In this document: in pieces, positions 8,265 to 52,402 of the stretch | Position numbering within the stretch: the stretch's first letter is position 1 | Layout: the number at the start of each line of letters is the position of its first letter | Assembly (NCBI GenBank): GCA_048939595.1 | Contig: JBHLPI010000002.1 | Coordinates: 13,058-77,057 of the forward strand | Origin: Promethearchaeota archaeon | GTDB taxonomy: Archaea; Asgardarchaeota; Hermodarchaeia; Hermodarchaeales; Hermodarchaeaceae | DNA length: 64,000 bases | Direction: 5' to 3' | Position numbers and translations under genes: made by a program | The notes under the pieces: generated by a model | The model's input: the letters and a program-made list of their open reading frames with translations, nothing else | What the model was told of the DNA's origin: nothing | Database searches by the model: none

Positions 8265-11200
8265 GTGATTGGTCGTCAAGAAAGAGGAGTAATCATCGTG
8301 GTTTGTTTTATAGTGATGATTCTATTACAAGTAGGTTTTTGCCCAAGAATTATTCCTTTGCCTTCTCAGGGTCCAATTGCCCTTCACAAACCTCAAATTT
8401 TAGAATTAAAACCAACTGAATCAGAGAATAGTAAGCAAGAGAAGTTACCCAGCAATAGCAGCTGGATTCCTCTCCTGAGTGGATTTGCTGCTGATTCTCC
8501 GCCGCAGGCATTTGTTACAATAGCCCAACCAGCAAAGCTTCAGATTAAGTCACTCATCCCAGGATTATGGGAATTCCCAGTCAATGTGGGAAAACCACCG
8601 CTACCATTTAACGAACTTCGGATCCCCTTTAGCGGGTTCTTAACTGAAATGGGAAACCCAGAGGTACCTATAATAACCCGTTTAATCGAGGTTCCACTTG
8701 GAGCCGATATTCAAATAACCAAGATTACTTCCGAAGAAGCCATTTATACTAACCTAGTTGTTAGACCCCACCAAGGACCGATATTTGACCATCCCAATTT
8801 CGTTAATCCTCCATTCCAACAAAATAGTACAACCTATTTCCCTGGGATAAGTCAATGGTTTCCTTCAAGGGTTGCCTATCTTTCAGGAAGCCACCATTCG
8901 AATCCGATAGTTATTCGTGGTCACCGTGTTGTAGCGCTTAATATCCTTCCTGTCCAATTCAATGGTGCTACCAATAGTTGTAGAATAATATCTCAAATTA
9001 ACATCGAACTTAGCTTTCAGAATACGCCATTAGCTCCAATAGATACCCGCCTAGTTTCACCCGACTTTGAATCTCTTTTGGAACACACATTATTGAATTA
9101 TCAAACAATCTCTATTCCGTCAGTTCCAACGCCTCTCCAAAAAAATGAACCTATGCAATCATCCAATAGTGCCGATTATCTCATAATCACAACAAACGCT
9201 TTCAAGAGTGCTGTTTTAGAATTAGCAGAGTGGAAACGACAAAAAGGATTCTTTACAAGAATCGTTACTGTTGAAGATGATATATACGAGCCTGCAAGTG
9301 ATACTTATCAAGAAAAGGTTGATGACCTAACTGAGTATATTAAATTCGCTTATGAAAATTGGAGTCCAGCACCAGCCTATGTGCTATTCGTAGGCGACTC
9401 TGATCACATTCCACCTCATTATGGAATGTGGCATGAGATGCATCTAGGAGGCATAGCAACAGATTTACCATACTTTACAGTTGATGGACCAGATTACATT
9501 CCTGATATTCATTATGGTCGTTTGTCTGTGGACACCGTCGCAGATGTCACCAATATAATGAGTAAAATTCAAGACTATGAAAAACAGCCACCTACTGATC
9601 CTAACTTCTATCGAACAATAACCTCACTTGCAGGGGATAGTTTTGAGCATGTTGATACGATGAATTATATCAACGAATATCTCGGCGATTTGGGTATTAC
9701 TCGAAATGAGTTCACTGATGATGACATTCCAGGTATAAAATCAAGTATTGCCGCAGGAAATACTCTAGTGTATTATTATGGTCATGGCGATGCCAATAAT
9801 TACTATGCCTTTCACGGTCCTCAACCTACATTTGACGGCTGGTGGAATCCCCCATTTTATAAAGAGCACTTTGAAGAATTTTCAGTGGGATACCATGAAT
9901 GGCCTCTCGTTCTTAGCTTAGCGTGTAACACTGGATGGTTTGATGGAGAAACTGATATTGAGTCAACCGAAGGTATATACCGAGATTACTATGATGATAC
10001 AAATCCTATTGGGAATGTAAATATCGATGGGTTCTGTGAATTAGCCACACGTTTGGGAAATGATAAGGGGGCTATTGCCGTTGTTGGTTCGACTCGCTGT
10101 TCAGAATTAAAGTCCAACAAATTCTTTCTGCTTGGAATGATTGATGCATTATGGGATGGGTTCAATCAGGAATATTCAGTGGGAAGACACTTGAACCTTG
10201 GTCAAATGATGTGGTACGGTAAGATGATGTGTTTCAGCGCCTTCAATCTGGAATCACCTCTCACACAGTTAGCCTTTGAATTGTACCATCTCTTTGGAGA
10301 TCCAGAATTAACTATCTATACTCAAAAGCCAGATGAGCTTTTGGTTTCATATAATCAACATATCGGTTTTGGTGGACCTCAGTCATTTTGGGTAACCGTT
10401 GCTTCCTCGCAGGATCCTGAGCTCATGGTTCAATCAGCTAAGGTCTGTGTGCATGGTGAAACCGTCCACGAGGTTTTCTATACTAATCGAGATGGAGTAG
10501 CTGAATGCAAGATTACTCCAACCCAAAGCGAGGTACTGACGATTACTGTCACTCACAAAGATTTCATCCCATATCAGAACGAAATAGCTGTGTGTTCACA
10601 AGAAGCATGGATAACAGTCACACCAAAGGATGGGGTGACAAACACACCTCTAATTGTGCATGGTGAGAATTTCAATCCACAAGAAGAAGTAAAAATTGAT
10701 TTCGGAGTGCTCAGAGAACTCTTTACATTCAGTATTCAGGGTTCATCTTTTGACGAGCAGATTTCTGTTCCTTCTGGTACCGCCCCTCAAGAAACTATCG
10801 TGGCCTACCAATCGGATCGGTGCGCCACATTTGCTTTTGGTCGATGGGATAATCGTCCAGATTTAGCGATTTATTCCCAATGGGATGAGTCAACCTGGTA
10901 TCTGAATCCTGTGGGTTCAGGGCAGGATACGAATCCGCGGTGGAATAATCCGTGTATCCGGTTGATGAATATTGGCTCTCCGATTCCTGTCGGTACTTAT
11001 GGAATGGTTCCTATAGGGCGGTATACGATAGAAGCCGATGTGTATAACATCTCTCCCGAAGATGCGCATGGCACGACGGTGCTTTTCGAGTGGAGTCAAT
11101 GGGGAATAGGGCAGACTGAATGGATAAAAATCACAGAATCAATCCCGCTTACAGTGCTTGGAAATGACAAAACGATGTTTTTTGCAGCCTTCACAATTTC

Positions 11201-11741
11201 CGAAGAGATGAATGTGTGCATTCGAGTAACAATTAACCACCCTAATGATTTGAATCCGAACAACAATATTGGAGTTGAGAATTATCAGACTTTGTTCATT
11301 GGACCACGCGCTCACAATACAGGCACAATTAATATCCCATTATACCAAGAAGTTCCTCGTTTGGATTTAAATTGGAGCACTAATCAAAATATTGATACTG
11401 AATGGATTGCTGACCTCTCTCGTCCAGGAGATTCTGAAGGCCCGTCTACTTTGGGAGAACACCCGACATTAGAATTCTTAACACCGGATGATGTTTCTAT
11501 CTCGAATTTCCAACGAACATATGTCATAACAGGTTTTGTTGGGAGAAATATAATTAGTGGCGTTGAGATTACTATATCTCGGGCGAGCCAAGCGCCATAT
11601 GACCCCTTGTATCACATAAGGAACCTTGTTTTATTAAATTGGCCAATTGTGTTACTCATTCTCCTAATACTTATCATTGTAATCCTTTACCTTTGGATTC
11701 GCCGCCGAAAAAAACGGCAGCAGAAGCACACCAAGGATTAG
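8265..11741 (+). CDS. Secreted peptidase C25 (gingipain-like) family protein with C-terminal Ig-like/beta domains and a C-terminal TM plus basic anchor.
   Basis: A GTG start follows a GGAGGG Shine-Dalgarno-like sequence, and an N-terminal signal peptide is present. C25 hallmarks are DYLIITTNAFKSAVLELAEWKRQKGF, YYYGHGDAN and LSLACNTGWFDGE (catalytic His/Cys context). The C terminus reads WPIVLLILLILIIVILYLWIRRRKKRQQK. Confidence 0.7.
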   Translation: MIGRQERGVIIVVCFIVMILLQVGFCPRIIPLPSQGPIALHKPQILELKPTESENSKQEKLPSNSSWIPLLSGFAADSPPQAFVTIAQPAKLQIKSLIPGLWEFPVNVGKPPLPFNELRIPFSGFLTEMGNPEVPIITRLIEVPLGADIQITKITSEEAIYTNLVVRPHQGPIFDHPNFVNPPFQQNSTTYFPGISQWFPSRVAYLSGSHHSNPIVIRGHRVVALNILPVQFNGATNSCRIISQINIELSFQNTPLAPIDTRLVSPDFESLLEHTLLNYQTISIPSVPTPLQKNEPMQSSNSADYLIITTNAFKSAVLELAEWKRQKGFFTRIVTVEDDIYEPASDTYQEKVDDLTEYIKFAYENWSPAPAYVLFVGDSDHIPPHYGMWHEMHLGGIATDLPYFTVDGPDYIPDIHYGRLSVDTVADVTNIMSKIQDYEKQPPTDPNFYRTITSLAGDSFEHVDTMNYINEYLGDLGITRNEFTDDDIPGIKSSIAAGNTLVYYYGHGDANNYYAFHGPQPTFDGWWNPPFYKEHFEEFSVGYHEWPLVLSLACNTGWFDGETDIESTEGIYRDYYDDTNPIGNVNIDGFCELATRLGNDKGAIAVVGSTRCSELKSNKFFLLGMIDALWDGFNQEYSVGRHLNLGQMMWYGKMMCFSAFNLESPLTQLAFELYHLFGDPELTIYTQKPDELLVSYNQHIGFGGPQSFWVTVASSQDPELMVQSAKVCVHGETVHEVFYTNRDGVAECKITPTQSEVLTITVTHKDFIPYQNEIAVCSQEAWITVTPKDGVTNTPLIVHGENFNPQEEVKIDFGVLRELFTFSIQGSSFDEQISVPSGTAPQETIVAYQSDRCATFAFGRWDNRPDLAIYSQWDESTWYLNPVGSGQDTNPRWNNPCIRLMNIGSPIPVGTYGMVPIGRYTIEADVYNISPEDAHGTTVLFEWSQWGIGQTEWIKITESIPLTVLGNDKTMFFAAFTISEEMNVCIRVTINHPNDLNPNNNIGVENYQTLFIGPRAHNTGTINIPLYQEVPRLDLNWSTNQNIDTEWIADLSRPGDSEGPSTLGEHPTLEFLTPDDVSISNFQRTYVITGFVGRNIISGVEITISRASQAPYDPLYHIRNLVLLNWPIVLLILLILIIVILYLWIRRRKKRQQKHTKD

Positions 11742-11844
11742 ACATTCCTTGCCAATATTCGCTAATTCGAAGCATGGTAGTGAAAGGGAAGCGCTTTTCT
11801 TACAAGTTCAACAGGTTGCGAATAAAAAAGGAGCTGGGTAGTAA

Positions 11845-12282
11845 TTGAATCCGCTAGAAGCATTCCCTTTCAAGAATATGCAGATTATCGTCGATTTAGT
11901 GGCAAAGGGGGAAGTGGGGATTTCGGAGATTCGGTCCGCTACGGGGATGTGTAGTTTTGATTCCACAGAGGTGTCAGACATACTTGCTTATTTGACAGGC
12001 TTTGGTCGCGTTGAAGCCAAGGAGGAGGGGTGGATGATTCATAGTCCAGAGACGAAAGTGGTGTATGAGCGATTTCGCAAAGCATTTCTCGAGGACGCTG
12101 TACTGATTCTCTCTAATTTATCAGATGAAACCAAATCTGTTGACAAATTGGCTCAGGAAACCGGTCTTAAACCCGAAAGGATTGATTTGTATTTACCTTT
12201 TCTTGCGGAGATTACTCGATTAGGTGTCATTAGTCGGTGTTCCACCGAGTACCCAATTATGTGGTGTATCCAGTCAGAATAA
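11845..12282 (+). CDS. Hypothetical protein, possibly tandem winged-helix.
   Basis: The 145-aa ORF lies immediately downstream of the C25 peptidase gene. I recognise no family for it. Confidence 0.35.
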
Positions 12283-26162: not shown

Positions 26163-27053
26163 ATGGGTCGAAATACTATGTCTGCCACAAAACCGCCTGC
26201 AATCCTCTTTGATGTAGGTCATAATGAAGAATTGACCCTTGTAGAACCTGAATTAGCATTTTTAGCTCAGCTTTTGGAAGCGAATGGATTTGCCCTTTCC
26301 ACAGATACTACTTCTCTTTCAAGTGATGAGTTATCACAGTATCAGGTTGTTGTTGTGGGCAATCCGTTTAAATCCAAATTGAACTCAGATGAAATCTCAG
26401 CCTTACGCTCCTATGTTGAAGTAGGTCGGGGCTTGCTTTTGGTAAGTGGCGCGACGATTTTTGGAAAAGGAGGTGATATAGCACGAAGTACTAATCTCAA
26501 TGATCTGGCAAGATTGTTTGGATTTGAATTTTCAAATAAATCTCTTGAGCCGCCACCTGAGGGCGAAGGGGATTTTTTTCATGCGGTTCCAGCAGGGAAC
26601 CATCCCGTACTTGCAGGCGTTGGTTCTTTGATATTAAGTTCAGGGACCACTCTTGTTGCGGAGGACGCAGACACTCATCTCTTTCGAGTATCAAGCAGTC
26701 TAGGAGCTCCTACCATTGCTATTGCGACAAGTTTCAAAAAAGGACGGGTTGCTGCCTTTGGTGGAGGAACCTTCTTTTTCAATGACTACATTGCAGCAGG
26801 GGATCACGAAAAATTTATCGTGCAGCTTTTTCGGTGGCTTGCTGGTGAGCCGATTGATTTACCAGTTCAAAAAGTTACCAAAGCATCAGCTATAATGGAT
26901 GAAGTGACAGCGACTGAAGCAATCGAGGAATTACGAGAACAACTTGATAAAATCGAAGACGAGTTGTCTAGCTTGAAAGAGGTTATCCATTCGAGTATCA
27001 AAGAAATGGAAAAAATGGTCCGAGAATTACAAGATAAAGATAAGGAGACTTAA
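26163..27053 (+). CDS. DUF4350/GldG-N-like (class I GATase-like fold) protein with a C-terminal coiled coil.
   Basis: The stretch LFDVGHNE...VVVVGNPFKS...LLLVSGA resembles the ABC-type uncharacterized transport system domain. The C terminus is heptad-rich (EELREQLDKIEDELSSLKEVIHSSIKEMEKMVRELQ). Confidence 0.45.
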   Translation: MGRNTMSATKPPAILFDVGHNEELTLVEPELAFLAQLLEANGFALSTDTTSLSSDELSQYQVVVVGNPFKSKLNSDEISALRSYVEVGRGLLLVSGATIFGKGGDIARSTNLNDLARLFGFEFSNKSLEPPPEGEGDFFHAVPAGNHPVLAGVGSLILSSGTTLVAEDADTHLFRVSSSLGAPTIAIATSFKKGRVAAFGGGTFFFNDYIAAGDHEKFIVQLFRWLAGEPIDLPVQKVTKASAIMDEVTATEAIEELREQLDKIEDELSSLKEVIHSSIKEMEKMVRELQDKDKET

Positions 27054-27771: not shown

Positions 27772-30348
27772 TTACTGAACTCGTTGAGCAATTCGATGGA
27801 TTTCACTAATGATTTCAGTTGGGGAAGCGAATTCTGTTCCAAGATAGGTTCGGCCCCCTGTTATATAGGCCATGTAGAAGGCTAGGAAAGGGATGAGTTT
27901 ATCATCTCGAATTCCGATTTCAATGTAATTTGAAACGCTTAATTCCTGAGCGCGTTTTCGAGCCCAGTCCATAAAAACGTCATGATGTTTCTTCTGTTTC
28001 ACAGGGAAAAATTCGTGATGTAAATTGATGGTAACTAAAGGAATCCGATCATTGCCCAGAAGATGGCATTGATGGAGAACATCTGCAATAGCTTCAGGTA
28101 GCCCGATATCTGGTGTATCAGAGTTTCTCAGTTGAATATTAGGTAGAAAATCACTGAATACGATAACGATGGGGAGTGTGCCAGGATTTCGACGCCGTTC
28201 TCGTTTGATGGTTTCATGGGCCCGTTTTAGCCCTGCTGCTAATGGCGTATACCCAGATAGACGGAGTGTCATAAATTTCGCTACAAGGCGTGTCCAGTTG
28301 GTTGTTGGTGCTTGGACTTCTACTGCCCCCCAGTCCTTTAACGCAATGAGCCCTACTCGGTCGCGAGTGCCCTCCAAACAGGTCTTGAAGGCAATTAGGG
28401 AGAGTTGAAGCTTATCGATGCTTTTGAGCATTGAAATACTCAGATCAACGACAAAGATAATTGTCAGGGGTGTCCGGCTTTGAAATCGTTTTTCTCGTAC
28501 ATCAGTGGGATTGATGTGAACTCGAGGAACTTCGAGGATTGTCGGGTTAGAGTGAAGTGCTGCAGCCTTAATTGTAGCGGGTATGTGAATGTTGCGAGGA
28601 GAGCCTTGAGGGAGTCCGGATCCTAAGAGGACACCGCCTTCGGATTGCCGTGATTGTAATGAGCCTGCGCGTCGGCCAACTTGACGTATTGACCATTTAG
28701 GAGCTCGTTGGCGTCCGAAGTATTTAGGTTCAAGGAAGTCTTTGAAATCAAATAGTGGTTTTCCTTCTTTCATGCGAATGAGAGAGGATCCTGACACGGG
28801 CTTCCCTGAGACAGATGGTTGGGAAGAACTCTGAACGGCTTTGGGTGATGTGGTACTTGTTGCTGGAGGGGCTGTGGAATCTCCCCGGTGTTTTGCCCGT
28901 TTATACCGACCCTTGTCGTCGGGCGGTTGTTTACCTTGGGAGAGAGCAGGCATCACAGAGCCAGGTCGACGTTGATATCGGTAGATCCGTTCGAGTAGAA
29001 TTACCAATCCCGCTGCAATCAATCCACCTACAACAAAGTTGAAGGGAGGGGGAACGGGCATTATGAGTCCGAGTGCAGCTGCTATTACCATGAAAAAACA
29101 AACAAATCCGGTATAAGAACAACGACCAGCAGCGCCTTTTCTAGGCGGGGTTCCGAAAAAACGTTCGCCATCCTGACTGCTGTCCAAAGGATGGTATTGC
29201 TTGAATTTTCGTGTGAGTTTTTGGTGCTCATCCTTTGTAAAGGGGTCTTTATCCTTGGACTGGGGAGTCTGAGTCTTGACTTTCTTTTTAGCTTCCTTCA
29301 TGATATTTTGAATCTCTTCACCTGTTGGTGGTTCGAGAATTCCACGTTGACGGGTTCGATGGCTGAGAGCCAGAGGGGCTACTATTTCTACATCTTCAGG
29401 TGTAACACTAGTACGTCCATCAAAGGCGGCAAACGCCATAGCTGTTTTGGCGATTACGATATCGGGACGAGCACCATCAACTTGGAGCTGAGTGGTTAAC
29501 TGAGCAATGAGTTCCATTATCTCCTCAGATAGTTCTATTGTCTTCATTTGCTCTCGTGCAGCTGTAATTTCGCCCCTGAGCTTCTCCTCCTGCGATGCCC
29601 ATTTCTTTTGGAGGCTTTGAGGATCGCGTTCAAAATCGATATTCAACTGAATGATTTCAACTCGTTCCGCAATGGTGAACGGGCGTTGGATTGCCACATG
29701 AAGGGGAAACCGATCTAAGAGTTGGGGACGGAGTTCTCCTTCTTCCGGGTTCATGGAGCCAATAAATATGAACCGTGAGGGGTGGCTAACGGAGATGCCT
29801 TCCCTTTCGACGACATTTACTCCTGTTGCTGCAGCATCAAGGAGTGAATCAACAATATGATCGGGAAGTAGATTTACTTCATCGACATAAAGGATGTTTT
29901 GATTTGCATCAGCAAGAATTCCTGGTTTGAGCGCGGCTTCGCCTTCACGGATAGCCCGCTCAACATCTAGGCTGCCCACAACACGGTCTTCTGTGGCACT
30001 TAATGGAAGGTTGACGACACGCATTTTTTGTTTGATGGTTGTCAGTTTCTTATTTTTTTCAAGTTTCTCAGTACAAGACGAACAAAGACCAAAAACATCG
30101 TCAGGAGCACACCGAAATTGGCAGCCTTTGACAATGGGAATTTCGGGAAGGAGGGCCGCAAGTGATCGAACAACAGTAGTTTTCCCAGTCCCTTTGGGTC
30201 CAGTTATCAGAAGCCCGCCAATGCCGGGATTAATGGCATTGAGTAACAGTGCTAGCTTCAATTCATCATGATTGACAAAAGCTGTGAATGGGAGAACACT
30301 GCGTAGGCTAGTATTTACTTCCGGAACCAAGCGAGGAACCTCTACCAC
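27772..30348 (-). CDS. Fused ChlI/BchI-like AAA+ ATPase, two TM helices, and a ChlD/BchD-like vWA domain (Mg-chelatase-like architecture, membrane-inserted).
   Basis: The ATPase part has a Walker A ([20 protein letters not shown]), the ChlI-type Zn-ribbon insert (CQFRCAPDD...CSSC) and a sensor region. A Pro/Ser-rich linker follows. The hydrophobic segments are [18 protein letters not shown] and [15 protein letters not shown]. The vWA domain carries the MIDAS motif DLSISM (DxSxS). Confidence 0.75.
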
Positions 30349-42271: not shown

Positions 42272-43669
42272 ATGCCTGTTATCTCCGATGAATCTCTTAA
42301 TGCCCTATCAAACCGAATCCTTTCTCGTTTGGATCCGGAAGATCGAAGTTATGCATTGAGTTTGATACAGAATATTATAATCTTCATTAAACGAATTCAA
42401 GGCCAAAAGATAAGTGAAGAAGAGGAACATTATCCAAGACATCCTCTTTTTTCACATTCTGCCCAAAAAGGAGGACAAGACACCGCCAAAACTCTTCTCT
42501 ACCGGTTACGTCTTGTTGACCAATATCATCTAGACAGAATACAATGCATAATCGATGTAGTTATCAGAAATATCCCATTTGGAGGTAAGAAACCCCTTTC
42601 ATCACGCAAAGCCCAGATACTTTGGCAACTATATCAAAACCCCATGGCCCCCAAATATAAATTAGCTAAGCAAATTGGCACAACACCGCGGACCCTTTCA
42701 AAAGATATTGCCGAATTAGAAAGAGACTATGCATTTCGAATTTTTACTTCAGTTGATTCCCATAAATTCCATCTAATTCAGAAAATCATCGTTTTTGAAA
42801 CAAAATCAATAGCACACACAAGGAAGCTAGCGGATTATGCTACCAATCACCGAGGCTTTCTTCGATCATTTCGACTTGACCAGGATATGCGTAGAGGTAC
42901 ACTGATTTATCGATACCCAAATCAAAAGGAAGGCAACCAATTGTTCGAAGCGCGAGTTGACACGCTTTTAGATGAACTGTTTATTGACGTTAATATCACT
43001 CAGGTGTTTGGAATACATCAATTCATTTCTTTTGAAATGTATAATCCTTTAACTTACGATTTTTCAATTGAGCCAGAAATTGTTTCACAAGTTCCCTTTG
43101 ATTACAGTAAAAGCCATTTGGATACCCTTCCACAGCCCCGTGGGCTTACCTTCACCAAACCTTTTTGGTTTGATCAGGCTGATTTCCTTTTAGCCGATAC
43201 GCTATATTCGTCTGGAACGCTTGCTGACCTCCAATATAAACAACGGCTTCTACGCAGATATGGAATTGAATATTCTACAAAAACGATTTGGAAGAAACAA
43301 CAGCGTCTCCGGAAAGAAAACGTCGGTTTTCCTACTATTGAATTACAGATTCCAGGTTTCGATGAAGATTTGGTTCTAGTTGTATTTTGTACACCAAAAG
43401 CCGCTTCATCAATTCGAGCAATTTCTGTTTTTCTTCCATATGTGATGATAATTACAACGGATTCTGGTTGTTTGCTACGAATTCAGCGACCAGTCCACAC
43501 TGCAACACTAACGGGACAACTTATTCGAAAAATACACAACCAAAGAGGCGTGAGGGATGTGAAACTCCTTCGATATCAAGGCAGACTTCAAACACCCCTA
43601 TTGCCAGATATTGTACATCGATGGAATACAGACAAACAAAAATGGATGGTACAAGAAGAAGACATCTGA
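42272..43669 (+). CDS. Member 1 of an expanded family of about 470-aa proteins with two predicted winged-helix/HTH segments. Function unknown.
   Basis: It is paralogous to 43688-45118 and 48811-50232 (shared EE.YP.H..FSH....G....L.YRL.L.D.Y.I and C-terminal W...KQ.W). The HTHs are LYQNPMAPKYKLAKQIGTTPRTLSKDIAELER and GIEYSTKTIWKKQQRL. Confidence 0.5.
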   Translation: MPVISDESLNALSNRILSRLDPEDRSYALSLIQNIIIFIKRIQGQKISEEEEHYPRHPLFSHSAQKGGQDTAKTLLYRLRLVDQYHLDRIQCIIDVVIRNIPFGGKKPLSSRKAQILWQLYQNPMAPKYKLAKQIGTTPRTLSKDIAELERDYAFRIFTSVDSHKFHLIQKIIVFETKSIAHTRKLADYATNHRGFLRSFRLDQDMRRGTLIYRYPNQKEGNQLFEARVDTLLDELFIDVNITQVFGIHQFISFEMYNPLTYDFSIEPEIVSQVPFDYSKSHLDTLPQPRGLTFTKPFWFDQADFLLADTLYSSGTLADLQYKQRLLRRYGIEYSTKTIWKKQQRLRKENVGFPTIELQIPGFDEDLVLVVFCTPKAASSIRAISVFLPYVMIITTDSGCLLRIQRPVHTATLTGQLIRKIHNQRGVRDVKLLRYQGRLQTPLLPDIVHRWNTDKQKWMVQEEDI

Positions 43670-43687: not shown

Positions 43688-45118
43688 ATGACAAGGATAC
43701 AAAACCCTTCTCATTCAGCCAATCTAGAACCTGTCATTGACAAGCAATTCATTGAGAAGCTCATTCATCGATCTGAACCACAAGAAGATCATGAAGATTT
43801 GCGCCTTTTTCTCACAAATGTGCTACTTTTTGTAAAACGTGTTGATGGAGTCGATTTAACGGATGAGGAGAAGGAATATCCATCTCATTCCCAATTTTCT
43901 CATTTGACTTTTCGCAAAGGGCAAAGTACAGCTGAGGGATTGAAATATCGTTTAGACCTCATTGACCGATATAACATCACCAACGCGCAACGCATAATTA
44001 ATATCATAGCCTCAACCGCCGTCTCAACTCCTAAGGAGAAACTAAATTCTCGTCAAATTCGCATAATCGAAGAACTACACAAGAATCCAACCATAGCCCG
44101 ATATGAACTCGCTAAGAAGCTATCAACAACAGCGCAAATTATCCGTAAAGAACTAATGCATCTCCGCCAACAATTTTCATTGGCTGTCATCTACAATTTG
44201 GATTACAGTAAACTCCGATTAGGTTTATTTGAGATTGATTTTCGGACAAAATCACTGGATGCATCTGAGCAACTTGAAAGATTCTACCGGAGAACTCCTC
44301 CTATCTTCTTGCGCCGAATAAATTTTGATCACAACTATCGAGATGGTTTCTTTCACTATCTTGTCCCGGATCAACCGGCGGGTCATCGAATGTTTGCTGA
44401 ACGCCTAAAGTGGTTAGATTCAAATTTTCTCGAAGAATCATCAACATTCAAAATCGAGAGTCTTCGCATTGATATTTCATTTGAGAATTATAATTTAGTA
44501 ACTGGCACGTGGATGCTGGATTCTGACTCGTATTCCGTAGGAGTCTTGGAATTTCTTACAGCTCAGGACAGAGATAGGCTGCCCGCGCGAGAGATGATAT
44601 TTGGGAGACCGATACGATTTGATCGCACGGATTACATTATAGCTTCTACGCCCTACATTTTTGGGGAAAAGCAGCATATCGGGGTCTGCCAAAAGGTGTT
44701 AGAACAACATGGATATTCATTATCTAAAAAGACAATTTGGAATCGCGTAAAGAAGTTGCAACAAGAGGATGTTATGTATCCGTCTGTTTGGTATGATAGT
44801 CCTGAGCTTGAAGAACTTGTCAAGTTTAGTATTACGTGCACTCCTGCAGCCTTTGAACCTATTTATCGACTTCTTTCAATTCTTCCTTATGTCTATTCTG
44901 TCCGAACAGACATTGGATTGACCTTTACATTTCACCGACCGAGTCGATGTGCCCCAATAACAGGTCTATTAGCTGACACCTTTGATAGAATAGATAGTGT
45001 TTCGGATATCAAGATTTTTCGGTACGAGCCTACCTTTAGTCCACAGTTGTTTACGAAGACCGCGGATCGTTGGGATGAAAGCCGACAACGTTGGCTTCTG
45101 AAAAAAGGTGATATCTAA
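43688..45118 (+). CDS. Member 2 of the same double-HTH paralog family.
   Basis: It sits in tandem, 18 nt after member 1, with the same domain layout (LHKNPTIARYELAKKLSTTAQIIRKELMHL and GYSLSKKTIWNRVKKLQ). Confidence 0.5.
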   Translation: MTRIQNPSHSANLEPVIDKQFIEKLIHRSEPQEDHEDLRLFLTNVLLFVKRVDGVDLTDEEKEYPSHSQFSHLTFRKGQSTAEGLKYRLDLIDRYNITNAQRIINIIASTAVSTPKEKLNSRQIRIIEELHKNPTIARYELAKKLSTTAQIIRKELMHLRQQFSLAVIYNLDYSKLRLGLFEIDFRTKSLDASEQLERFYRRTPPIFLRRINFDHNYRDGFFHYLVPDQPAGHRMFAERLKWLDSNFLEESSTFKIESLRIDISFENYNLVTGTWMLDSDSYSVGVLEFLTAQDRDRLPAREMIFGRPIRFDRTDYIIASTPYIFGEKQHIGVCQKVLEQHGYSLSKKTIWNRVKKLQQEDVMYPSVWYDSPELEELVKFSITCTPAAFEPIYRLLSILPYVYSVRTDIGLTFTFHRPSRCAPITGLLADTFDRIDSVSDIKIFRYEPTFSPQLFTKTADRWDESRQRWLLKKGDI

Positions 45119-46813: not shown

Positions 46814-46954
46814 ATTCAGGTCATTCGGGAATTCAGTGTCACCCGCTTAAGAGTGTGCCGACAGCGAAGAAGGAAAGTTATAAAGACGAGAACTACAGCT
46901 GCAATCTTATCAATCGACCAACTTAGTCGGTCAAGCACTTCGAGCGTGGAAGAA

Positions 46955-47563
46955 ATGCCTGAGAAATTCATTAAATACCATATTCAAAAGGACCAACTTG
47001 TCCGCGTCCCTCAAAATTACCTAAACGAGTTCGGAACAGGTGACGTATACCTAGTTGACACCGGACCCATCATTTACTCATGGATTGGGAACAAGTCCAC
47101 ACCTGATGAACAATTCATTGGAGCGGTTACCGCGGTATGGAAAGACCAAGATCGAAAGGGAACCGCAAAACTTGTTACGGTTCATGAAGGAGAAGAACCC
47201 AGAGCGTTTTTAGAATTATTCAGTGATAAGATTGTAGTAACCGAGCAAGATACTGAGGGGATTCTGAAACGTGTCGCACTCAAACAACACGAGTTCAAAC
47301 TTTTCCGTGTACACATCGAAGATGAATTGAAAATGTTTTACGAAGTTGAACGCGATAAAGACTCTCTTGATACAGGTGATGTCTTTCTTTTAGATACATA
47401 CAATAAAATCTACATTTGGCGAGGAAAAGGATCCACCGCCTTCGAACGCTGGGAAGGCATGCGAATAGCTGAAGGATATGATGGCCAACGAGCAGGACAT
47501 CAAGAAGTCATTATCGTTGAAGAGGGAGAAGAACCCAAAGAATTCATCAAACTCCTCAAGTAA
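46955..47563 (+). CDS. Two-domain gelsolin/cofilin-superfamily protein (Asgard 2DGel-like actin regulator).
   Basis: Two gelsolin repeats are present: DVYLVDTGPIIYSWIGNKSTPDEQF and DVFLLDTYNKIYIWRGKGSTAFERWEG. The start is chosen at MPEKF; the ORF track extends 34 codons upstream. Confidence 0.7.
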   Translation: MPEKFIKYHIQKDQLVRVPQNYLNEFGTGDVYLVDTGPIIYSWIGNKSTPDEQFIGAVTAVWKDQDRKGTAKLVTVHEGEEPRAFLELFSDKIVVTEQDTEGILKRVALKQHEFKLFRVHIEDELKMFYEVERDKDSLDTGDVFLLDTYNKIYIWRGKGSTAFERWEGMRIAEGYDGQRAGHQEVIIVEEGEEPKEFIKLLK

Positions 47564-47711
47564 CAATCACACCAAAAACTAGAGAGGTAACCAAGAAGGG
47601 GGAAGAAACCCCAAGTTCGATAATAATACAGTAGGCCCCAGAGCCCCTCTTGGTCAATTTGCCGCTGGACCTTTTTTTCTCAATCCCGAGGAAAGCCAGT
47701 TTAAACCAGTC

Positions 47712-47763: not shown

Positions 47764-48222
47764 TTAGGTGGCATCATCGAGGACTAAGCTAACGAATTTA
47801 CCCAATCGACCTGTGTGCTGGATGGCATTCTTGAGCCGGGCCTCGTGCGATTCCTTTTTGACGAGAAGATGATTCTCTCGCACGACGACGAGTTCGGTGA
47901 GAAGATCATAGAGCCGACGTAATTCCATTCGATCGACTTGCTGAGAAAGGCGTTCCAGGAGGCGGAACACGTCGTTCATCTCAACCTTCTCAAGCTGGTC
48001 AATAGAGTCCGTGACATTTTGCGACCGCAAAAAGGACCGGGCTAGGCGTAAAACTGGGTCGCTATTGTCATCTGTCCCTGTGGTCACGGCAATTCCCCTC
48101 AGTGTCGCCATACTAAGCACCCCCAATGCTAGCGACGCTTGAGACTTCATGACCAGCCGGCTCAACGCGGACACGCACTCCTGCTGGAGTAGCTTCCACG
48201 GTGATCCGACCACTAAGACCAC
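47764..48222 (-). CDS. Hypothetical protein with a helical C-terminal domain.
   Basis: This 152-aa ORF overlaps the next ORF by 110 nt in another frame. Confidence 0.35.
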   Translation of the reverse strand: MVLVVGSPWKLLQQECVSALSRLVMKSQASLALGVLSMATLRGIAVTTGTDDNSDPVLRLARSFLRSQNVTDSIDQLEKVEMNDVFRLLERLSQQVDRMELRRLYDLLTELVVVRENHLLVKKESHEARLKNAIQHTGRLGKFVSLVLDDAT

Positions 48223-48415
48223 AGGTATCCTTGACTAATTCTAGTAACAAGCTACCAATCGCTCCGATTTCACGAAGGTCTTCACTTCCCGTCTTTGGGG
48301 TAATGTCGATATCGATTGGGTGGGCGTCAATGACGCTTACAATTCGCTGGGTTCCTTCCATTATTTCTGTAGCCACTTTTTTCTCCACCTTTCTAAACAC
48401 AAGTGGGAAAAACAT
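48113..48415 (-). CDS. Hypothetical protein, possibly the N-terminal part of one gene with 47764-48222.
   Basis: This 100-aa ORF ends inside the downstream ORF. A frameshift or overlapping genes would both explain it. Confidence 0.3.
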   Translation of the reverse strand: MFFPLVFRKVEKKVATEIMEGTQRIVSVIDAHPIDIDITPKTGSEDLREIGAIGSLLLELVKDTCGLSGRITVEATPAGVRVRVEPAGHEVSSVASIGGA

Positions 48416-48810
48416 CAGAATGTGAGCCCAATACCGTGTTGATTAATGATCGACTGAGCAAGCCATCTCAGTCAGTCTTTAGTACGGAAACGGATTCGTT
48501 GCGTGCGGTTCCATTGTTCGGTTTTCACATCCGGTGGGTTTTTCCCTTGCGAGTGTGTTTGCTGGAATCTAATACAATCAATGTGCAGCAGCCTTTATAT
48601 GGGGGTTCATGGAGCGGGTAACGGAGCTGACAAAAAAGCCGAATCGGCGAACAGAGAACGGGTAATCGCATGTTGTCACTTAAACTCTGTTGGGTTCACG
48701 TTTTTGTCTAACAGAGAATTAAGTCCGCTTCTAAATTTGTGCTTTTTCGTCAAAAGGAAACTTTTTATGCCATAATCTTTCTTTCTGACGATGGTGTGGC
48801 GCGCGTGGCA

Positions 48811-50232
48811 ATGGCAGCGGATGCATGGGATTTGCTCAACACTCTGAAGGGCAATATTCAGTCCTCGATGCGCCCAAGCGAGGAACTTCTTGAAGTAACA
48901 CAATTACTCGATAATCTCCGAGTATATTCTAAGCGAGTTAAGGGTATACCCCTAACTCATGAAGACTATGAGCTGGTTCCCCACAGATATTTTGACGGAT
49001 TATCAACAGCACCACGCGAGCGGATTTACAATTCTCTTGTCCGTCGTCTAAAAGTAATCTTGCGGTTCAATATCACATCATATGAAAAGGTTTCCCGTGA
49101 TTTACTTCGTGGCTTAGTAACTGATGAAACAGAGAGACTAAATGGAAGAGAGCTTCGACTACTTAGTATACTTTATCAGCGTCCAAAAACTCCTCAGGCA
49201 CAGGTGGCAAAGGAACTCAAAATTAGTATGCCAACTATGAGAAAAGATCTCAAAGTTTTAGAAGAAAAAATTGGGTTACGCTTCGCCAATCTTGTGGATT
49301 GGGGCAGATTCAAGCTAAGACATTATGGTATCTTCTTTGTTACAAAGGGGGTTGATCTTTCTAAACGGGTTCAAGCCATCTTCAACAATGAGATGTCGAC
49401 CTATCTGACTACAGCTGTTTTCGATACTACCTTTCGGCGAGGGTTTGTTGGTTTTCGAATTCCAGATCAAGGAAAACCAGTTCAACTATTCCTTGACCAG
49501 ATACAATTTTTGGATGACGAGTTCTTCGAAATATGTCAGATTCATGAGATTCAGAAGTATTATCAAGCGATATGCTTCGACCATTTTGATTATGAGTCCA
49601 GTACCTGGTTAATTGAAGGCGATGTGTCTTCTATGGGACTACTCAATTTCGTCCGGGAAAATTGGGCTGTTCTACCGAAGCCACGGGGATTATCCAATAC
49701 ATTAGCACGTTCCTTTGATCAGTTGGACTATTATCTTGCTTGTTTTCTCATTGGTGATGGTCGGGCCAATATGAAGAAAATACTTCAACGATTAAGTGCT
49801 AGAGGAATAGAAGCTCCGCGAACAACAGTTTCAACGCGGAAAACTCGCTTAAGTAAGGAAAAGACATTAGAACCATATTTTATTTTTTCAACACCACAAT
49901 TACCTTTCTTTATCACGTTTGCTATTCGGTGTGAACCTCACATCGCTGAGCAGATTGTTGTTGCTGTTGCCCAGATGCCATTGGCTTTTGCTACAATCTC
50001 GAATATCGGGTGCGTTGTGAATGTCCAAGTGCCTTCTCGAAGCTTGGGTCAGATTCTAAATCTTCTTTCATTGACACACCAGGAAGATGATGTTCATGAG
50101 GTTTGGCAGATGCAGCAGTATAAGAACGTTGGATCTGTAGACCCAGCTAATATTGCTCCGAAGTGGAATGGTTCGTATTGGAATTGGTCCGAAGAAGAAT
50201 TCACCATTCCCTCATTTGGGCGCGAATATTAG
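48811..50232 (+). CDS. Member 3 of the double-HTH paralog family.
   Basis: The alignable start is MAADAWDLLNTLKG. Shared motifs are Y.LVPHRYFDGLS and RLK.ILRFNIT. The HTH is LYQRPKTPQAQVAKELKISMPTMRKDLKVLEE. The ORF track begins at 48739. Confidence 0.5.
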   Translation: MAADAWDLLNTLKGNIQSSMRPSEELLEVTQLLDNLRVYSKRVKGIPLTHEDYELVPHRYFDGLSTAPRERIYNSLVRRLKVILRFNITSYEKVSRDLLRGLVTDETERLNGRELRLLSILYQRPKTPQAQVAKELKISMPTMRKDLKVLEEKIGLRFANLVDWGRFKLRHYGIFFVTKGVDLSKRVQAIFNNEMSTYLTTAVFDTTFRRGFVGFRIPDQGKPVQLFLDQIQFLDDEFFEICQIHEIQKYYQAICFDHFDYESSTWLIEGDVSSMGLLNFVRENWAVLPKPRGLSNTLARSFDQLDYYLACFLIGDGRANMKKILQRLSARGIEAPRTTVSTRKTRLSKEKTLEPYFIFSTPQLPFFITFAIRCEPHIAEQIVVAVAQMPLAFATISNIGCVVNVQVPSRSLGQILNLLSLTHQEDDVHEVWQMQQYKNVGSVDPANIAPKWNGSYWNWSEEEFTIPSFGREY

Positions 50233-50289: not shown

Positions 50290-51333
50290 TTGGTGGTGTC
50301 AATAATAAATACACAATTAGCTGTCCGAGAAGGAGATTTCGTTGAAACGACCGAAGGGTTGATTTTTGATGTGAAAGGATTGGTGCATCCTCCAAATAGA
50401 GTGATTGCGTTTTTACGATATTATCCTTCGGCTAAGGGGAAACGAGAACGGGATGGTCAGCGGTATGACAAGGTCTACCATTTGGCAGAGCGATTTGATT
50501 TTCTCAAACAGCACTATTCTCATTATCTATATGATGACCCAGTATTTGGTCGGGAGTTGCAAGGAATTCCAATTGAATCGATTAAGAAAGTCTACCAACC
50601 CAAAGCAAGTCTTGTGAGATTAAAGGAAATTGAAACGCGGGATGCATTGCAGCAAGATGTGGTGACGTTCACAGAGATGATTCAAGAACAGGCTAAGATA
50701 TCAGTAGAAGCTCTTGGGATATCCGGAAGCATCCAAGTCAATTTGCATGGTCCCACCTCTGATATTGATCTTATCGTCTATGGTCGACGAGAAGCTCGAA
50801 CATTGCAACTAGCCCTTAGACGAGCGCATATGGTTCCCGACGAGGGGATTTCAGCATATCAATTGGATACCTATGCTGCTGTGTATAATCTTCGCTGGTG
50901 TGGGACCAGTATTCCGATTGAAACGATGTTGTTGGTTGATGGGCTTAAATCAATGCATGGAATTTTTGGTGGTCACCATTATTTCATCCGAGCAGTTTTA
51001 GATTGGGATGAGGTTCAAGAGCGGTATGGGGATTGCAAGTACCGTCAGGTAGGCCATGCCCGGGCACGGTGTCGAGTGACAGATGATCGCGATGGACTGT
51101 TTACACCTTGCCGATATGAGGTTGATGACGTGACGATTGTGAAAGGAACCAAATCAAAGGATGTTCGTGAGATTGTGAGTTTTCGTGGACGTTTTGCTGA
51201 GCATGTACGACAAGATGAAGAAGTTATTGTTCAGGGTGCTCTCGAATCTGTTCAGAAAGGTAATGAGAAATGGACCCGATTTCTACTTGGAGATACACCG
51301 ACAGATATCTTATTACCCAGTAATTTGCTTTGA
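50290..51333 (+). CDS. Pol-beta-superfamily nucleotidyltransferase, paralog 1.
   Basis: The GS-x9-DxD motif is GISGSIQVNLHGPTSDIDLIVYG. An N-terminal domain of about 150 aa precedes it. Confidence 0.55.
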   Translation: MVVSIINTQLAVREGDFVETTEGLIFDVKGLVHPPNRVIAFLRYYPSAKGKRERDGQRYDKVYHLAERFDFLKQHYSHYLYDDPVFGRELQGIPIESIKKVYQPKASLVRLKEIETRDALQQDVVTFTEMIQEQAKISVEALGISGSIQVNLHGPTSDIDLIVYGRREARTLQLALRRAHMVPDEGISAYQLDTYAAVYNLRWCGTSIPIETMLLVDGLKSMHGIFGGHHYFIRAVLDWDEVQERYGDCKYRQVGHARARCRVTDDRDGLFTPCRYEVDDVTIVKGTKSKDVREIVSFRGRFAEHVRQDEEVIVQGALESVQKGNEKWTRFLLGDTPTDILLPSNLL

Positions 51334-51355: not shown

Positions 51356-52402
51356 GTGGCGCGTCTTCCAAAAGATAAGGATTTTGTAGAAACCAAAGAG
51401 GGACTATTTTTCACAATTGTCGGGTATTTGCACCCTCCTGATGCGTACACGGCGTATTTGAAATATCGTCCAGACCCTAAAGGAAAATGGGAACGAGGAG
51501 ACGTGCGTTACGAACGGATGATGCAAGTCTATAGTGCTGCGGAAGTGCAATCGAGTAGTAATTGGCTATTAGAGAATCACCCGAAGTATATTCAACTCGA
51601 CCCAGTTAGAGGATTTAAACTACCCTTGGTACCGTGGAAGAGTACGGTCGCATACTATTTGCCGGAGGTTCGAATGGCAGAAATCATCCGTAATCCACAA
51701 GATCCATTGGAATCGAAGGCGAAAGCCTTAGTGACTTTGCTTTCTGAGACTAGCGAGGTTGAACCCTCCCATTTTGGAGTTTCAGGTTCAATCTTGTTGG
51801 AAATTCACAATCCCATGTTCTCTGATATTGATTTACTCGTTTATGGTCAAGAAAACGTGCACCGAGTTCGGGATGTGATGGATGAGTTATTTGGCGAAAA
51901 TAAGGTAAAGCCATACTCAGGTGAAGAGATTCAAGCCTGGCAGCTTCGACAAGTCCGAACCCTAGGAATTCCTGCACGATATGCAGAGCAAATAGCATGG
52001 TCACATTGGCAACGAGGGCGGTTTGGAAAAACCTCGTTTTCGATTAATCCCATCCGGATGGACGGAGAAATAATGAACCAATATGGAACAGAAACCTATT
52101 CTCCGGTAGAAACAGTTGAATTCACAGCCACAATCATAGAAGATGAATCGAATTTATTCGTTCCAGCGCGATACTTTGTTGGTGACATTTCAATAGAGGA
52201 AGGAAACACTGAATTGCCTGCACTGACTGAAGTCGTCTCGTTTGAGGGAGTATTTTCTGCGGTTTTTAACAAAGGTGATCGCGTGCGAATTCGTGGCATG
52301 GTTGAAGCAATTCGTGATCAACAAGGAAACATCTTACGAAACCAAGTTATTGTTGGAGCACTATCTGCACAGGGTTGGATTATCCGTCTACCATCATCCT
52401 AG
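51356..52402 (+). CDS. Pol-beta-superfamily nucleotidyltransferase, paralog 2.
   Basis: The motif is GVSGSILLEIHNPMFSDIDLLVYG. It is collinear with paralog 1 (DFVET.EGL.F...G..HPP). Confidence 0.55.
   Translation: MARLPKDKDFVETKEGLFFTIVGYLHPPDAYTAYLKYRPDPKGKWERGDVRYERMMQVYSAAEVQSSSNWLLENHPKYIQLDPVRGFKLPLVPWKSTVAYYLPEVRMAEIIRNPQDPLESKAKALVTLLSETSEVEPSHFGVSGSILLEIHNPMFSDIDLLVYGQENVHRVRDVMDELFGENKVKPYSGEEIQAWQLRQVRTLGIPARYAEQIAWSHWQRGRFGKTSFSINPIRMDGEIMNQYGTETYSPVETVEFTATIIEDESNLFVPARYFVGDISIEEGNTELPALTEVVSFEGVFSAVFNKGDRVRIRGMVEAIRDQQGNILRNQVIVGALSAQGWIIRLPSS

Follow-up and report, generated by a model that had tools for sequence, protein, structure and literature searches.

The analysed window, a stretch of 64 kb that was studied at its full length, encodes a two-domain gelsolin of the 2DGel type on the forward strand (46955..47563, stop included). 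The coding sequence was recognised by its open reading frame, two matches to the Pfam family PF00626 and matches to the crystallised proteins 7c2h_G and 7c2g_G. The stop codon is located at 47561-47563, and the protein of 202 aa reads MPEKFIKYH...FIKLLK. The mechanical open reading frame is longer: it begins with a GTG, covers 46853..47563 (+) and encodes 236 aa, with the first internal ATG at 46955. The distance between both starts, (46955-46853)/3, equals 34 codons. All syntenic orthologues (14/14) start with the ATG equivalent to position 46955. In 11 of the 14 loci, an in-frame stop codon is situated 4-12 codons upstream of this ATG; the remaining three have it at 19 or 33 codons (L012, L010) and at exactly 12 codons (L004). 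Owing to these upstream stops, the 34-codon extension of the window is not conserved. The genuine start codon of the gelsolin gene is the ATG at 46955. The original prediction had given precisely this span and had recognised the over-extension by 34 codons; the length of 202 aa was confirmed, and the start is borne out by the orthologue starts together with the upstream stop codons. Nearly all full-length database homologues have 197-207 aa. The frame is intact in all orthologues, and dN/dS ratios of 0.04-0.10, calculated against orthologues with unsaturated dS, reveal strong purifying selection on the gene.

A Shine-Dalgarno-like GAGCGTG is located 6 nt before the ATG (46942..46948, +), at the same place in orthologous loci. 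Most orthologues have GAG[CT]GTG or a close variant at this distance. The sequence resembles the Shine-Dalgarno sequence GAGGTG and presumably serves as ribosome-binding site. Further upstream, a TATA-box-like TTATAAAG (46878..46885, +) precedes the ATG by 77 nt. It is conserved in orthologous loci, and the alignment of the orthologue upstream regions revealed a conserved block enclosing it, GGAAAGTTATAAAGACGAGAAC (46872-46893, +). In all 15 loci of clade A, the clade of the window protein, a TATA-like box precedes the ATG by 65-99 nt, with TTATTTAG as one variant. This box is the likely archaeal promoter of a monocistronic gelsolin gene, which would give a 5' leader of about 45 nt. The divergent spacer between cofE and the gelsolin gene also contains an 18-nt element, GCTTAAGAGTGTGCCGAC (46845..46862, without strand assignment), which was detected in an alignment of 15 upstream regions. 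It is nearly invariant in 14 of the 15 orthologous loci, and the spacer around it varies. The spurious GTG start at 46853 sits within this element, a candidate for the promoter of cofE or for a site used by a regulator. On the other side of the gene, 109 nt past the stop codon, a run of seven T (47672..47678, +) is a candidate archaeal oligo-T terminator. T-runs of at least five at +105 to +121 are present in 8/15 orthologous loci, a faint hint at such a function.

The gelsolin gene is part of a conserved block of about 15 kb. A tblastn search of the window neighbours against the loci showed the same gene order in all clade-A loci that are long enough. Neighbours were identified with Pfam. The 5' part encodes an FMN reductase, a MobA-like transferase, two HTH proteins, a RimK-type ATP-grasp protein and a cofE-like F420 ligase. 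The gelsolin gene is followed by genes for a 128-aa and a 100-aa protein, an HTH protein, an NTP-transferase-like protein and its paralogue, a molybdopterin-binding protein and a H+-pyrophosphatase. It is divergent from cofE, with a 141-bp spacer, and convergent with the small gene pair. It stands alone, as a probably monocistronic gene with its own putative promoter. The surroundings are cofactor and metabolism genes, none of them cytoskeletal. Paralogous HTH proteins and a convergent pair of unknown genes had been predicted as flanks. The convergent pair is indeed located downstream and the HTH paralogues are nearby, but the immediate upstream neighbour is the divergent cofE-like ligase, followed by the RimK-type ATP-grasp gene. 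Two of the HTH paralogues (42272-43669 and 43688-45118, +) lie beyond cofE and RimK, and the third (48739-50232, +) lies beyond the downstream pair.

Both small genes are encoded on the reverse strand (47764..48150 for 128 aa, 48113..48415 for 100 aa) and overlap by 38 nt. The pair adjoins the gelsolin gene in all Hermodarchaeota loci, the deep lineage included (39-49% identity). Single-sequence and profile searches of Pfam, NCBIfam and PDB yielded no match for either protein. A single-sequence AlphaFold model of the 128-aa protein was all-helical, with a pLDDT of 49. In pairwise BLASTP, the three HTH paralogues (465-497 aa) align along nearly their entire length, with 26-30% identity and E-values of 4e-50 to 9e-75. 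Weak matches to Lrp/AsnC-type HTH domains are located near residues 110-180. This HTH family is conserved in Hermodarchaeota loci, with a fourth copy in L009. The third HTH gene is followed in all Hermodarchaeota loci by tandem paralogues of about 347 aa, here at 50290-51333 and 51356-52402 (+). These are 28-33% identical, and one has a marginal match to the nucleotidyltransferase family PF01909. In another part of the window, Pfam detected a 296-aa protein with an IFT52 GIFT domain (43.9 bits, cut-off 27.2) and DUF4350 (26163-27053, +) and a MoxR-type AAA+ protein with a VWA domain (27772-30348, -). About 0.7 kb with one gene of 219 aa separates both genes, which probably constitute an ordinary MoxR-VWA cluster. 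Pfam also identified a large gingipain-like C25 cysteine peptidase of 1158 aa with its propeptide domain (8265-11741, +). Scans of the 64-kb window for tRNAs and Rfam families found nothing.

PF00626 was matched in two stretches of the gelsolin with an E-value of 7.1e-29 and 99.9 bits, compared to a gathering cut-off of 21. The best stretch comprises residues 130-198. With such profile E-values, the observation of a gelsolin is far beyond chance. The halves of the protein match each other with 43% identity over 63 residues (E 1e-9). In a phmmer search against all PDB chains, the top match was Thorarchaeota 2DGel3 (7c2h_G, E 2.9e-55), followed by Thorarchaeota 2DGel (7c2g_G, E 1.5e-54). The alignments span residues 7-199 of 202 and nearly the whole 200-residue targets, with about 48% identity. 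Both targets were crystallised with rabbit actin (PMC7444086). Lower-ranked PDB matches were gelsolin G1-G2, villin, CapG, Loki 2DGel (9e-27), adseverin and Heimdall 2DGel (5e-17). Horse and human gelsolin G1-G2 aligned with residues 8-201, with an E-value of about 1e-45 for the whole protein and 1.6e-15 for the best domain. The single-domain ProGel (7c2f) was a weak match (E 0.003). No NCBIfam family matched the gelsolin, and a search with the family HMM against all six-frame open reading frames of at least 40 aa found no second gelsolin domain elsewhere in the window.

An AlphaFold2 model built from 12 homologues (mean pLDDT 78.9) has two alpha/beta gelsolin-type domains (D1 and D2) with a linker helix between them (residues 100-111). 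The long helices comprise residues 50-65 in D1 and 162-178 in D2. A Foldseek search of the PDB with this model ranked 7c2h_G first (E 1.6e-22) and 7c2g_G next (E 3.8e-22), with 47-48% identity. The whole-chain TM-score between the model and the actin-bound crystal form is 0.47, and the domain arrangement fails to superpose. This is expected when a free two-domain protein is compared with an actin-bound conformation, and the model lends no support to the bound geometry. The C-terminus carries neither a tail nor a linker or Zn domain; the 202 aa end four residues past the last helix of D2. The homologues, too, are all about 200 aa long and tail-less.

The gene encodes a Thor-type, extension-less 2DGel of Asgard archaea, a member of a known family and in this respect not surprising. 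A two-domain gelsolin of the Asgard 2DGel type had been predicted from motifs. The double PF00626 match shows that profile methods back the motif likeness, and the published Thor 2DGels are the best matches of the whole PDB over the full length, in agreement with the fold search. Membership in the eukaryotic gelsolin/villin family proper was rejected: gelsolin, villin, CapG and adseverin have three or six domains, whereas the window protein has two, shares about 25-30% identity with them and lacks the G3-G6 domains, the latch helix and the headpiece. Cofilin/ADF and the Asgard ProGel were rejected as well, as these have a single domain without the gelsolin calcium sites, and here two domains are present, both with signatures.

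D1 (residues ~5-96; 46967..47242, +) was defined by the AlphaFold secondary structure and the alignment to gelsolin G1, and D2 (residues ~114-202; 47294..47560, +) by Pfam, the alignment to gelsolin G2 and AlphaFold. D1 has the calcium signatures G29-D30 and E52 (type II) and D64 and G69 (type I). In D2, these are D142 and E164 (type II) and D176 and G181 (type I). D30/E52 and D64/G69 align with the type II residues D66/E97 and the type I residues D109/G114 in gelsolin G1 (human numbering), and D142/E164 with D187/E209 in G2. W-x-G motifs are located at W43-x-G45 in D1 and W155-x-G157 in D2. The motif DxxxLDxGxxIYxWxGxxS, which had been assigned to each repeat, is present in both, though with eight and not nine of its nine fixed positions. 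Repeat 1 reads DVYLVDTGPIIYSWIGNKS at residue 30, with a valine in place of leucine at residue 34, and repeat 2 reads DVFLLDTYNKIYIWRGKGS at residue 142, with a tyrosine in place of glycine at residue 149. The D1-D2 linker helix contains the WH2-like motif L104-K105-R106-V107 (47264..47275, +), assigned by the published definition (PMC9433394, PMC7444086) and by alignment. This LKRV aligns with LKKV/LRRV of 7c2h/7c2g and FKHV of gelsolin, and is directly preceded by an invariant D99-T-E-G-I-L. The literature defines 2DGels by two gelsolin domains, both with type I and II calcium-site signatures, and by a linker with a WH2-like L-basic-basic-V/T; the Thor type is without C-terminal extension (PMC7444086, PMC9433394).

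To assess conservation, 81 sequences from genome loci of Hermodarchaeota and Thorarchaeota were aligned. The calcium signatures, both W-x-G motifs and L104-[KR]-[KR]-V are invariant or nearly so; E52, for instance, has a single change to D among the 81 relatives. The second basic residue of the WH2-like motif is always R in clade A and mostly K in the second Hermodarchaeota clade, B2, and in Thor. Judged by the signature residues, calcium is predicted to occupy both type II sites and the type I site of D1. The D1 helix 50-65 corresponds to the helix that binds actin in gelsolin G1.

An identical protein is present at NCBI as MFX1564498.1, annotated only as "hypothetical protein" and encoded on a contig of 83 kb, and is also found on JABXGX010000259.1 of GCA_016550405.1. 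Among GTDB species, each represented by one genome, a scan revealed 14 syntenic orthologous loci with 72-91% identity at the protein level. Where their names give a lineage, it is in most cases Candidatus Hermodarchaeota, as for Ca. Hermodarchaeum yapensis and H03M_Hermod_104. The proteins from SMTZ1-45 (L078) and AB_25 (L076), the source genomes of the published Thor proteins, form a separate clade with 45-53% identity. As the named syntenic loci are mostly Hermod and the Thor source genomes are in a separate clade, the contig belongs to Hermodarchaeota and not to Thorarchaeota. The original prediction was right on the Asgard origin, given the identical protein in Asgard MAG records and the syntenic orthologues in 14 Asgard MAGs; the assignment to Hermodarchaeota refines it. 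Record titles are inconsistent: L007, titled Odinarchaeota, and L015, titled Thorarchaeota, carry the full Hermodarchaeota-type block, and L060, titled Hermodarchaeota, carries a Thor-type gelsolin.

Hits with 56-58% identity fall in two groups, deeper syntenic orthologues versus a second paralogue. The loci L017, L023, L026 and L029 keep the order RimK-cofE-gelsolin-small gene pair and are orthologues in a deeper Hermod lineage. The second copy, clade B2, was found in the same genomes as clade A at ten loci (L016, L018-L022, L024, L025, L027, L028). It is also listed at L082 and L083. Between clades B2 and A, the identity is 51-61% (mean 57%), and within the clades it averages 77% for A and 86% for B2. 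The B2 gene is always located just downstream of an aminotransferase, in the context cupin, methyltransferase, ADH, methyltransferase, aminotransferase. The paralogue (for example P0041, P0044, P0049) has the same length, architecture and signature residues. It differs by GDC in D1 and LKKV in the linker from the window protein, which has GDV and LKRV.

A neighbour-joining tree of 42 sequences with 50 bootstraps supported each group with 100%, clade A together with its syntenic orthologues with 76%, and all Hermod copies together versus Thor with 54%. The window protein, about 48% identical to the Thor proteins that have been characterised, is in a separate Hermodarchaeota clade (bootstrap 100%). 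Hermodarchaeota keep two 2DGel paralogues, as both copies occur in the same genomes and in separate groups of the tree. The duplication was probably lineage-specific, its timing being weakly resolved in the tree. A search for an ancestral locus common with Thor 2DGel found none for either Hermod paralogue.

Thor 2DGel, 2DGel2 and 2DGel3 share with the window protein the arrangement of D1, WH2-like linker and D2, the length of about 200 aa, the lack of a C-terminal tail, the calcium-site signatures and the W-x-G motifs. The WH2-like motif is basic in all of them, with LKRV here versus LRRV and LKKV in Thor. Before D1, the window protein has a two-residue insertion (VPQNYLNEFG) compared to MKDPGAFG in Thor. 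Loki2DGel/MKD1-2DGel and Heim2DGel (7whg, 7whf; PMC9433394) likewise have two domains with type I and II signatures. These, however, carry C-terminal extensions, either a linker and Zn domain or a charged tail, which the window protein lacks, and the linker motif of Loki 2DGel is an unusual LVDV. Their matches are weaker than those of the Thor proteins, with 38% identity to the Loki-type P0056. Calcium-controlled actin regulation has been observed for the Loki and Heim 2DGels, whereas for the window protein it would follow by homology.

Actin and profilin genes were sought in the window. Pfam detected neither among 47 open reading frames of at least 120 aa and the 100-aa frame, a range in which very divergent profilins below 120 aa could escape. 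A tblastn search of the 64 kb with rabbit actin detected no actin. Neither actin nor profilin was present within 10 kb of the gelsolin gene in any Hermodarchaeota locus examined. In contrast, several Thor loci have an actin gene close by. In 9 of 52 Thorarchaeota loci (L032, L034, L037, L039, L040, L043, L044, L068, L071), it is encoded on the opposite strand, at a distance of 0.5-10 kb from the 2DGel gene. In L068, the gelsolin gene is at 9693-10286 and the actin gene at 10818-11915. According to tblastn, these linked actins are 59-64% identical to rabbit actin.

Severing of rabbit actin by Thor 2DGel, 2DGel2 and 2DGel3 requires calcium, and the affinities of these proteins for rabbit actin are weak, with Kd values of 54-135 uM (PMC7444086). 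By homology, the Hermodarchaeota 2DGel is predicted to regulate the cell's own lokiactin once calcium has activated it, very probably by severing, capping and sequestering monomers. Calcium bound at the type II site of each domain and at the D1 type I site would switch the protein on. The long helix of D1 would insert into the cleft that separates actin subdomains 1 and 3, where the type I calcium would form a bridge to Glu167 of actin. The linker with LKRV may follow the actin surface in the manner of a WH2 motif, and D2 may contact a second actin site. In this way, the protein would sever filaments, cap barbed ends and sequester lokiactin monomers. The precise activity is not transferable at about 48% identity, as even the three Thor orthologues, which are 76-89% identical among themselves, differ in bundling, severing and nucleation (PMC7444086).

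This variability among close orthologues also bears on a narrower role. The window copy, a true 2DGel, could have diverged after the duplication into a capper, bundler or sequesterer only, with severing left to the other paralogue. The coexistence of clade A and B2 copies in ten genomes, in different conserved contexts, is in line with such a specialisation, as is the R/K difference in the WH2-like motif. The calcium and actin motifs are, however, intact in both paralogues, both clades are strongly conserved, and the sequence gives no sign of a lost activity. Such a divergence is unlikely. A division of activities between the two copies, for example severing and capping versus bundling and nucleation, has a somewhat better chance and may be put forward as a tentative idea.

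A partner other than actin could be suspected from the metabolic neighbours (cofE, RimK, MobA, FMN reductase, H+-PPase) and the lack of a nearby cytoskeletal gene. Against this, the protein matches actin-bound 2DGels and gelsolin G1-G2 best, and not Sec23/24, and both the WH2-like linker motif and the signature of the actin-dependent type I calcium site are conserved, which makes such a partner highly improbable. Contamination with eukaryotic DNA, recent acquisition of the gene from a eukaryote or its decay into a pseudogene might come to mind for an otherwise eukaryotic signature protein, of which one JGI record calls a homologue 'advillin', but the synteny of the block in the Asgard MAGs and the four deeper orthologous loci with archaeal neighbours, the uniform GC content (0.38-0.48), nearest relatives that are all Asgard, and the low dN/dS with an intact frame leave practically no room for it, and contamination and decay are ruled out by synteny, composition and dN/dS.

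The calcium-activated regulation of lokiactin proposed for the window gelsolin leaves the view of how such proteins work unchanged. The gains are the assignment to Hermodarchaeota, the conserved locus, the second paralogue, the start codon, candidate regulatory elements and an annotation that is absent from NCBI. The gelsolin marks the contig as Asgard, and the correctly started sequence is available for expression. If the two Hermodarchaeota copies did divide their activities, this would be a subfunctionalisation of archaeal actin regulators that arose independently of the expansion of the eukaryotic family. The gene extends the 2DGel family, so far characterised in Thor, Loki and Heimdall, to a well-conserved Hermodarchaeota lineage. 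Asgard gelsolins are part of the evidence for a calcium-regulated actin cytoskeleton that predates eukaryotes.
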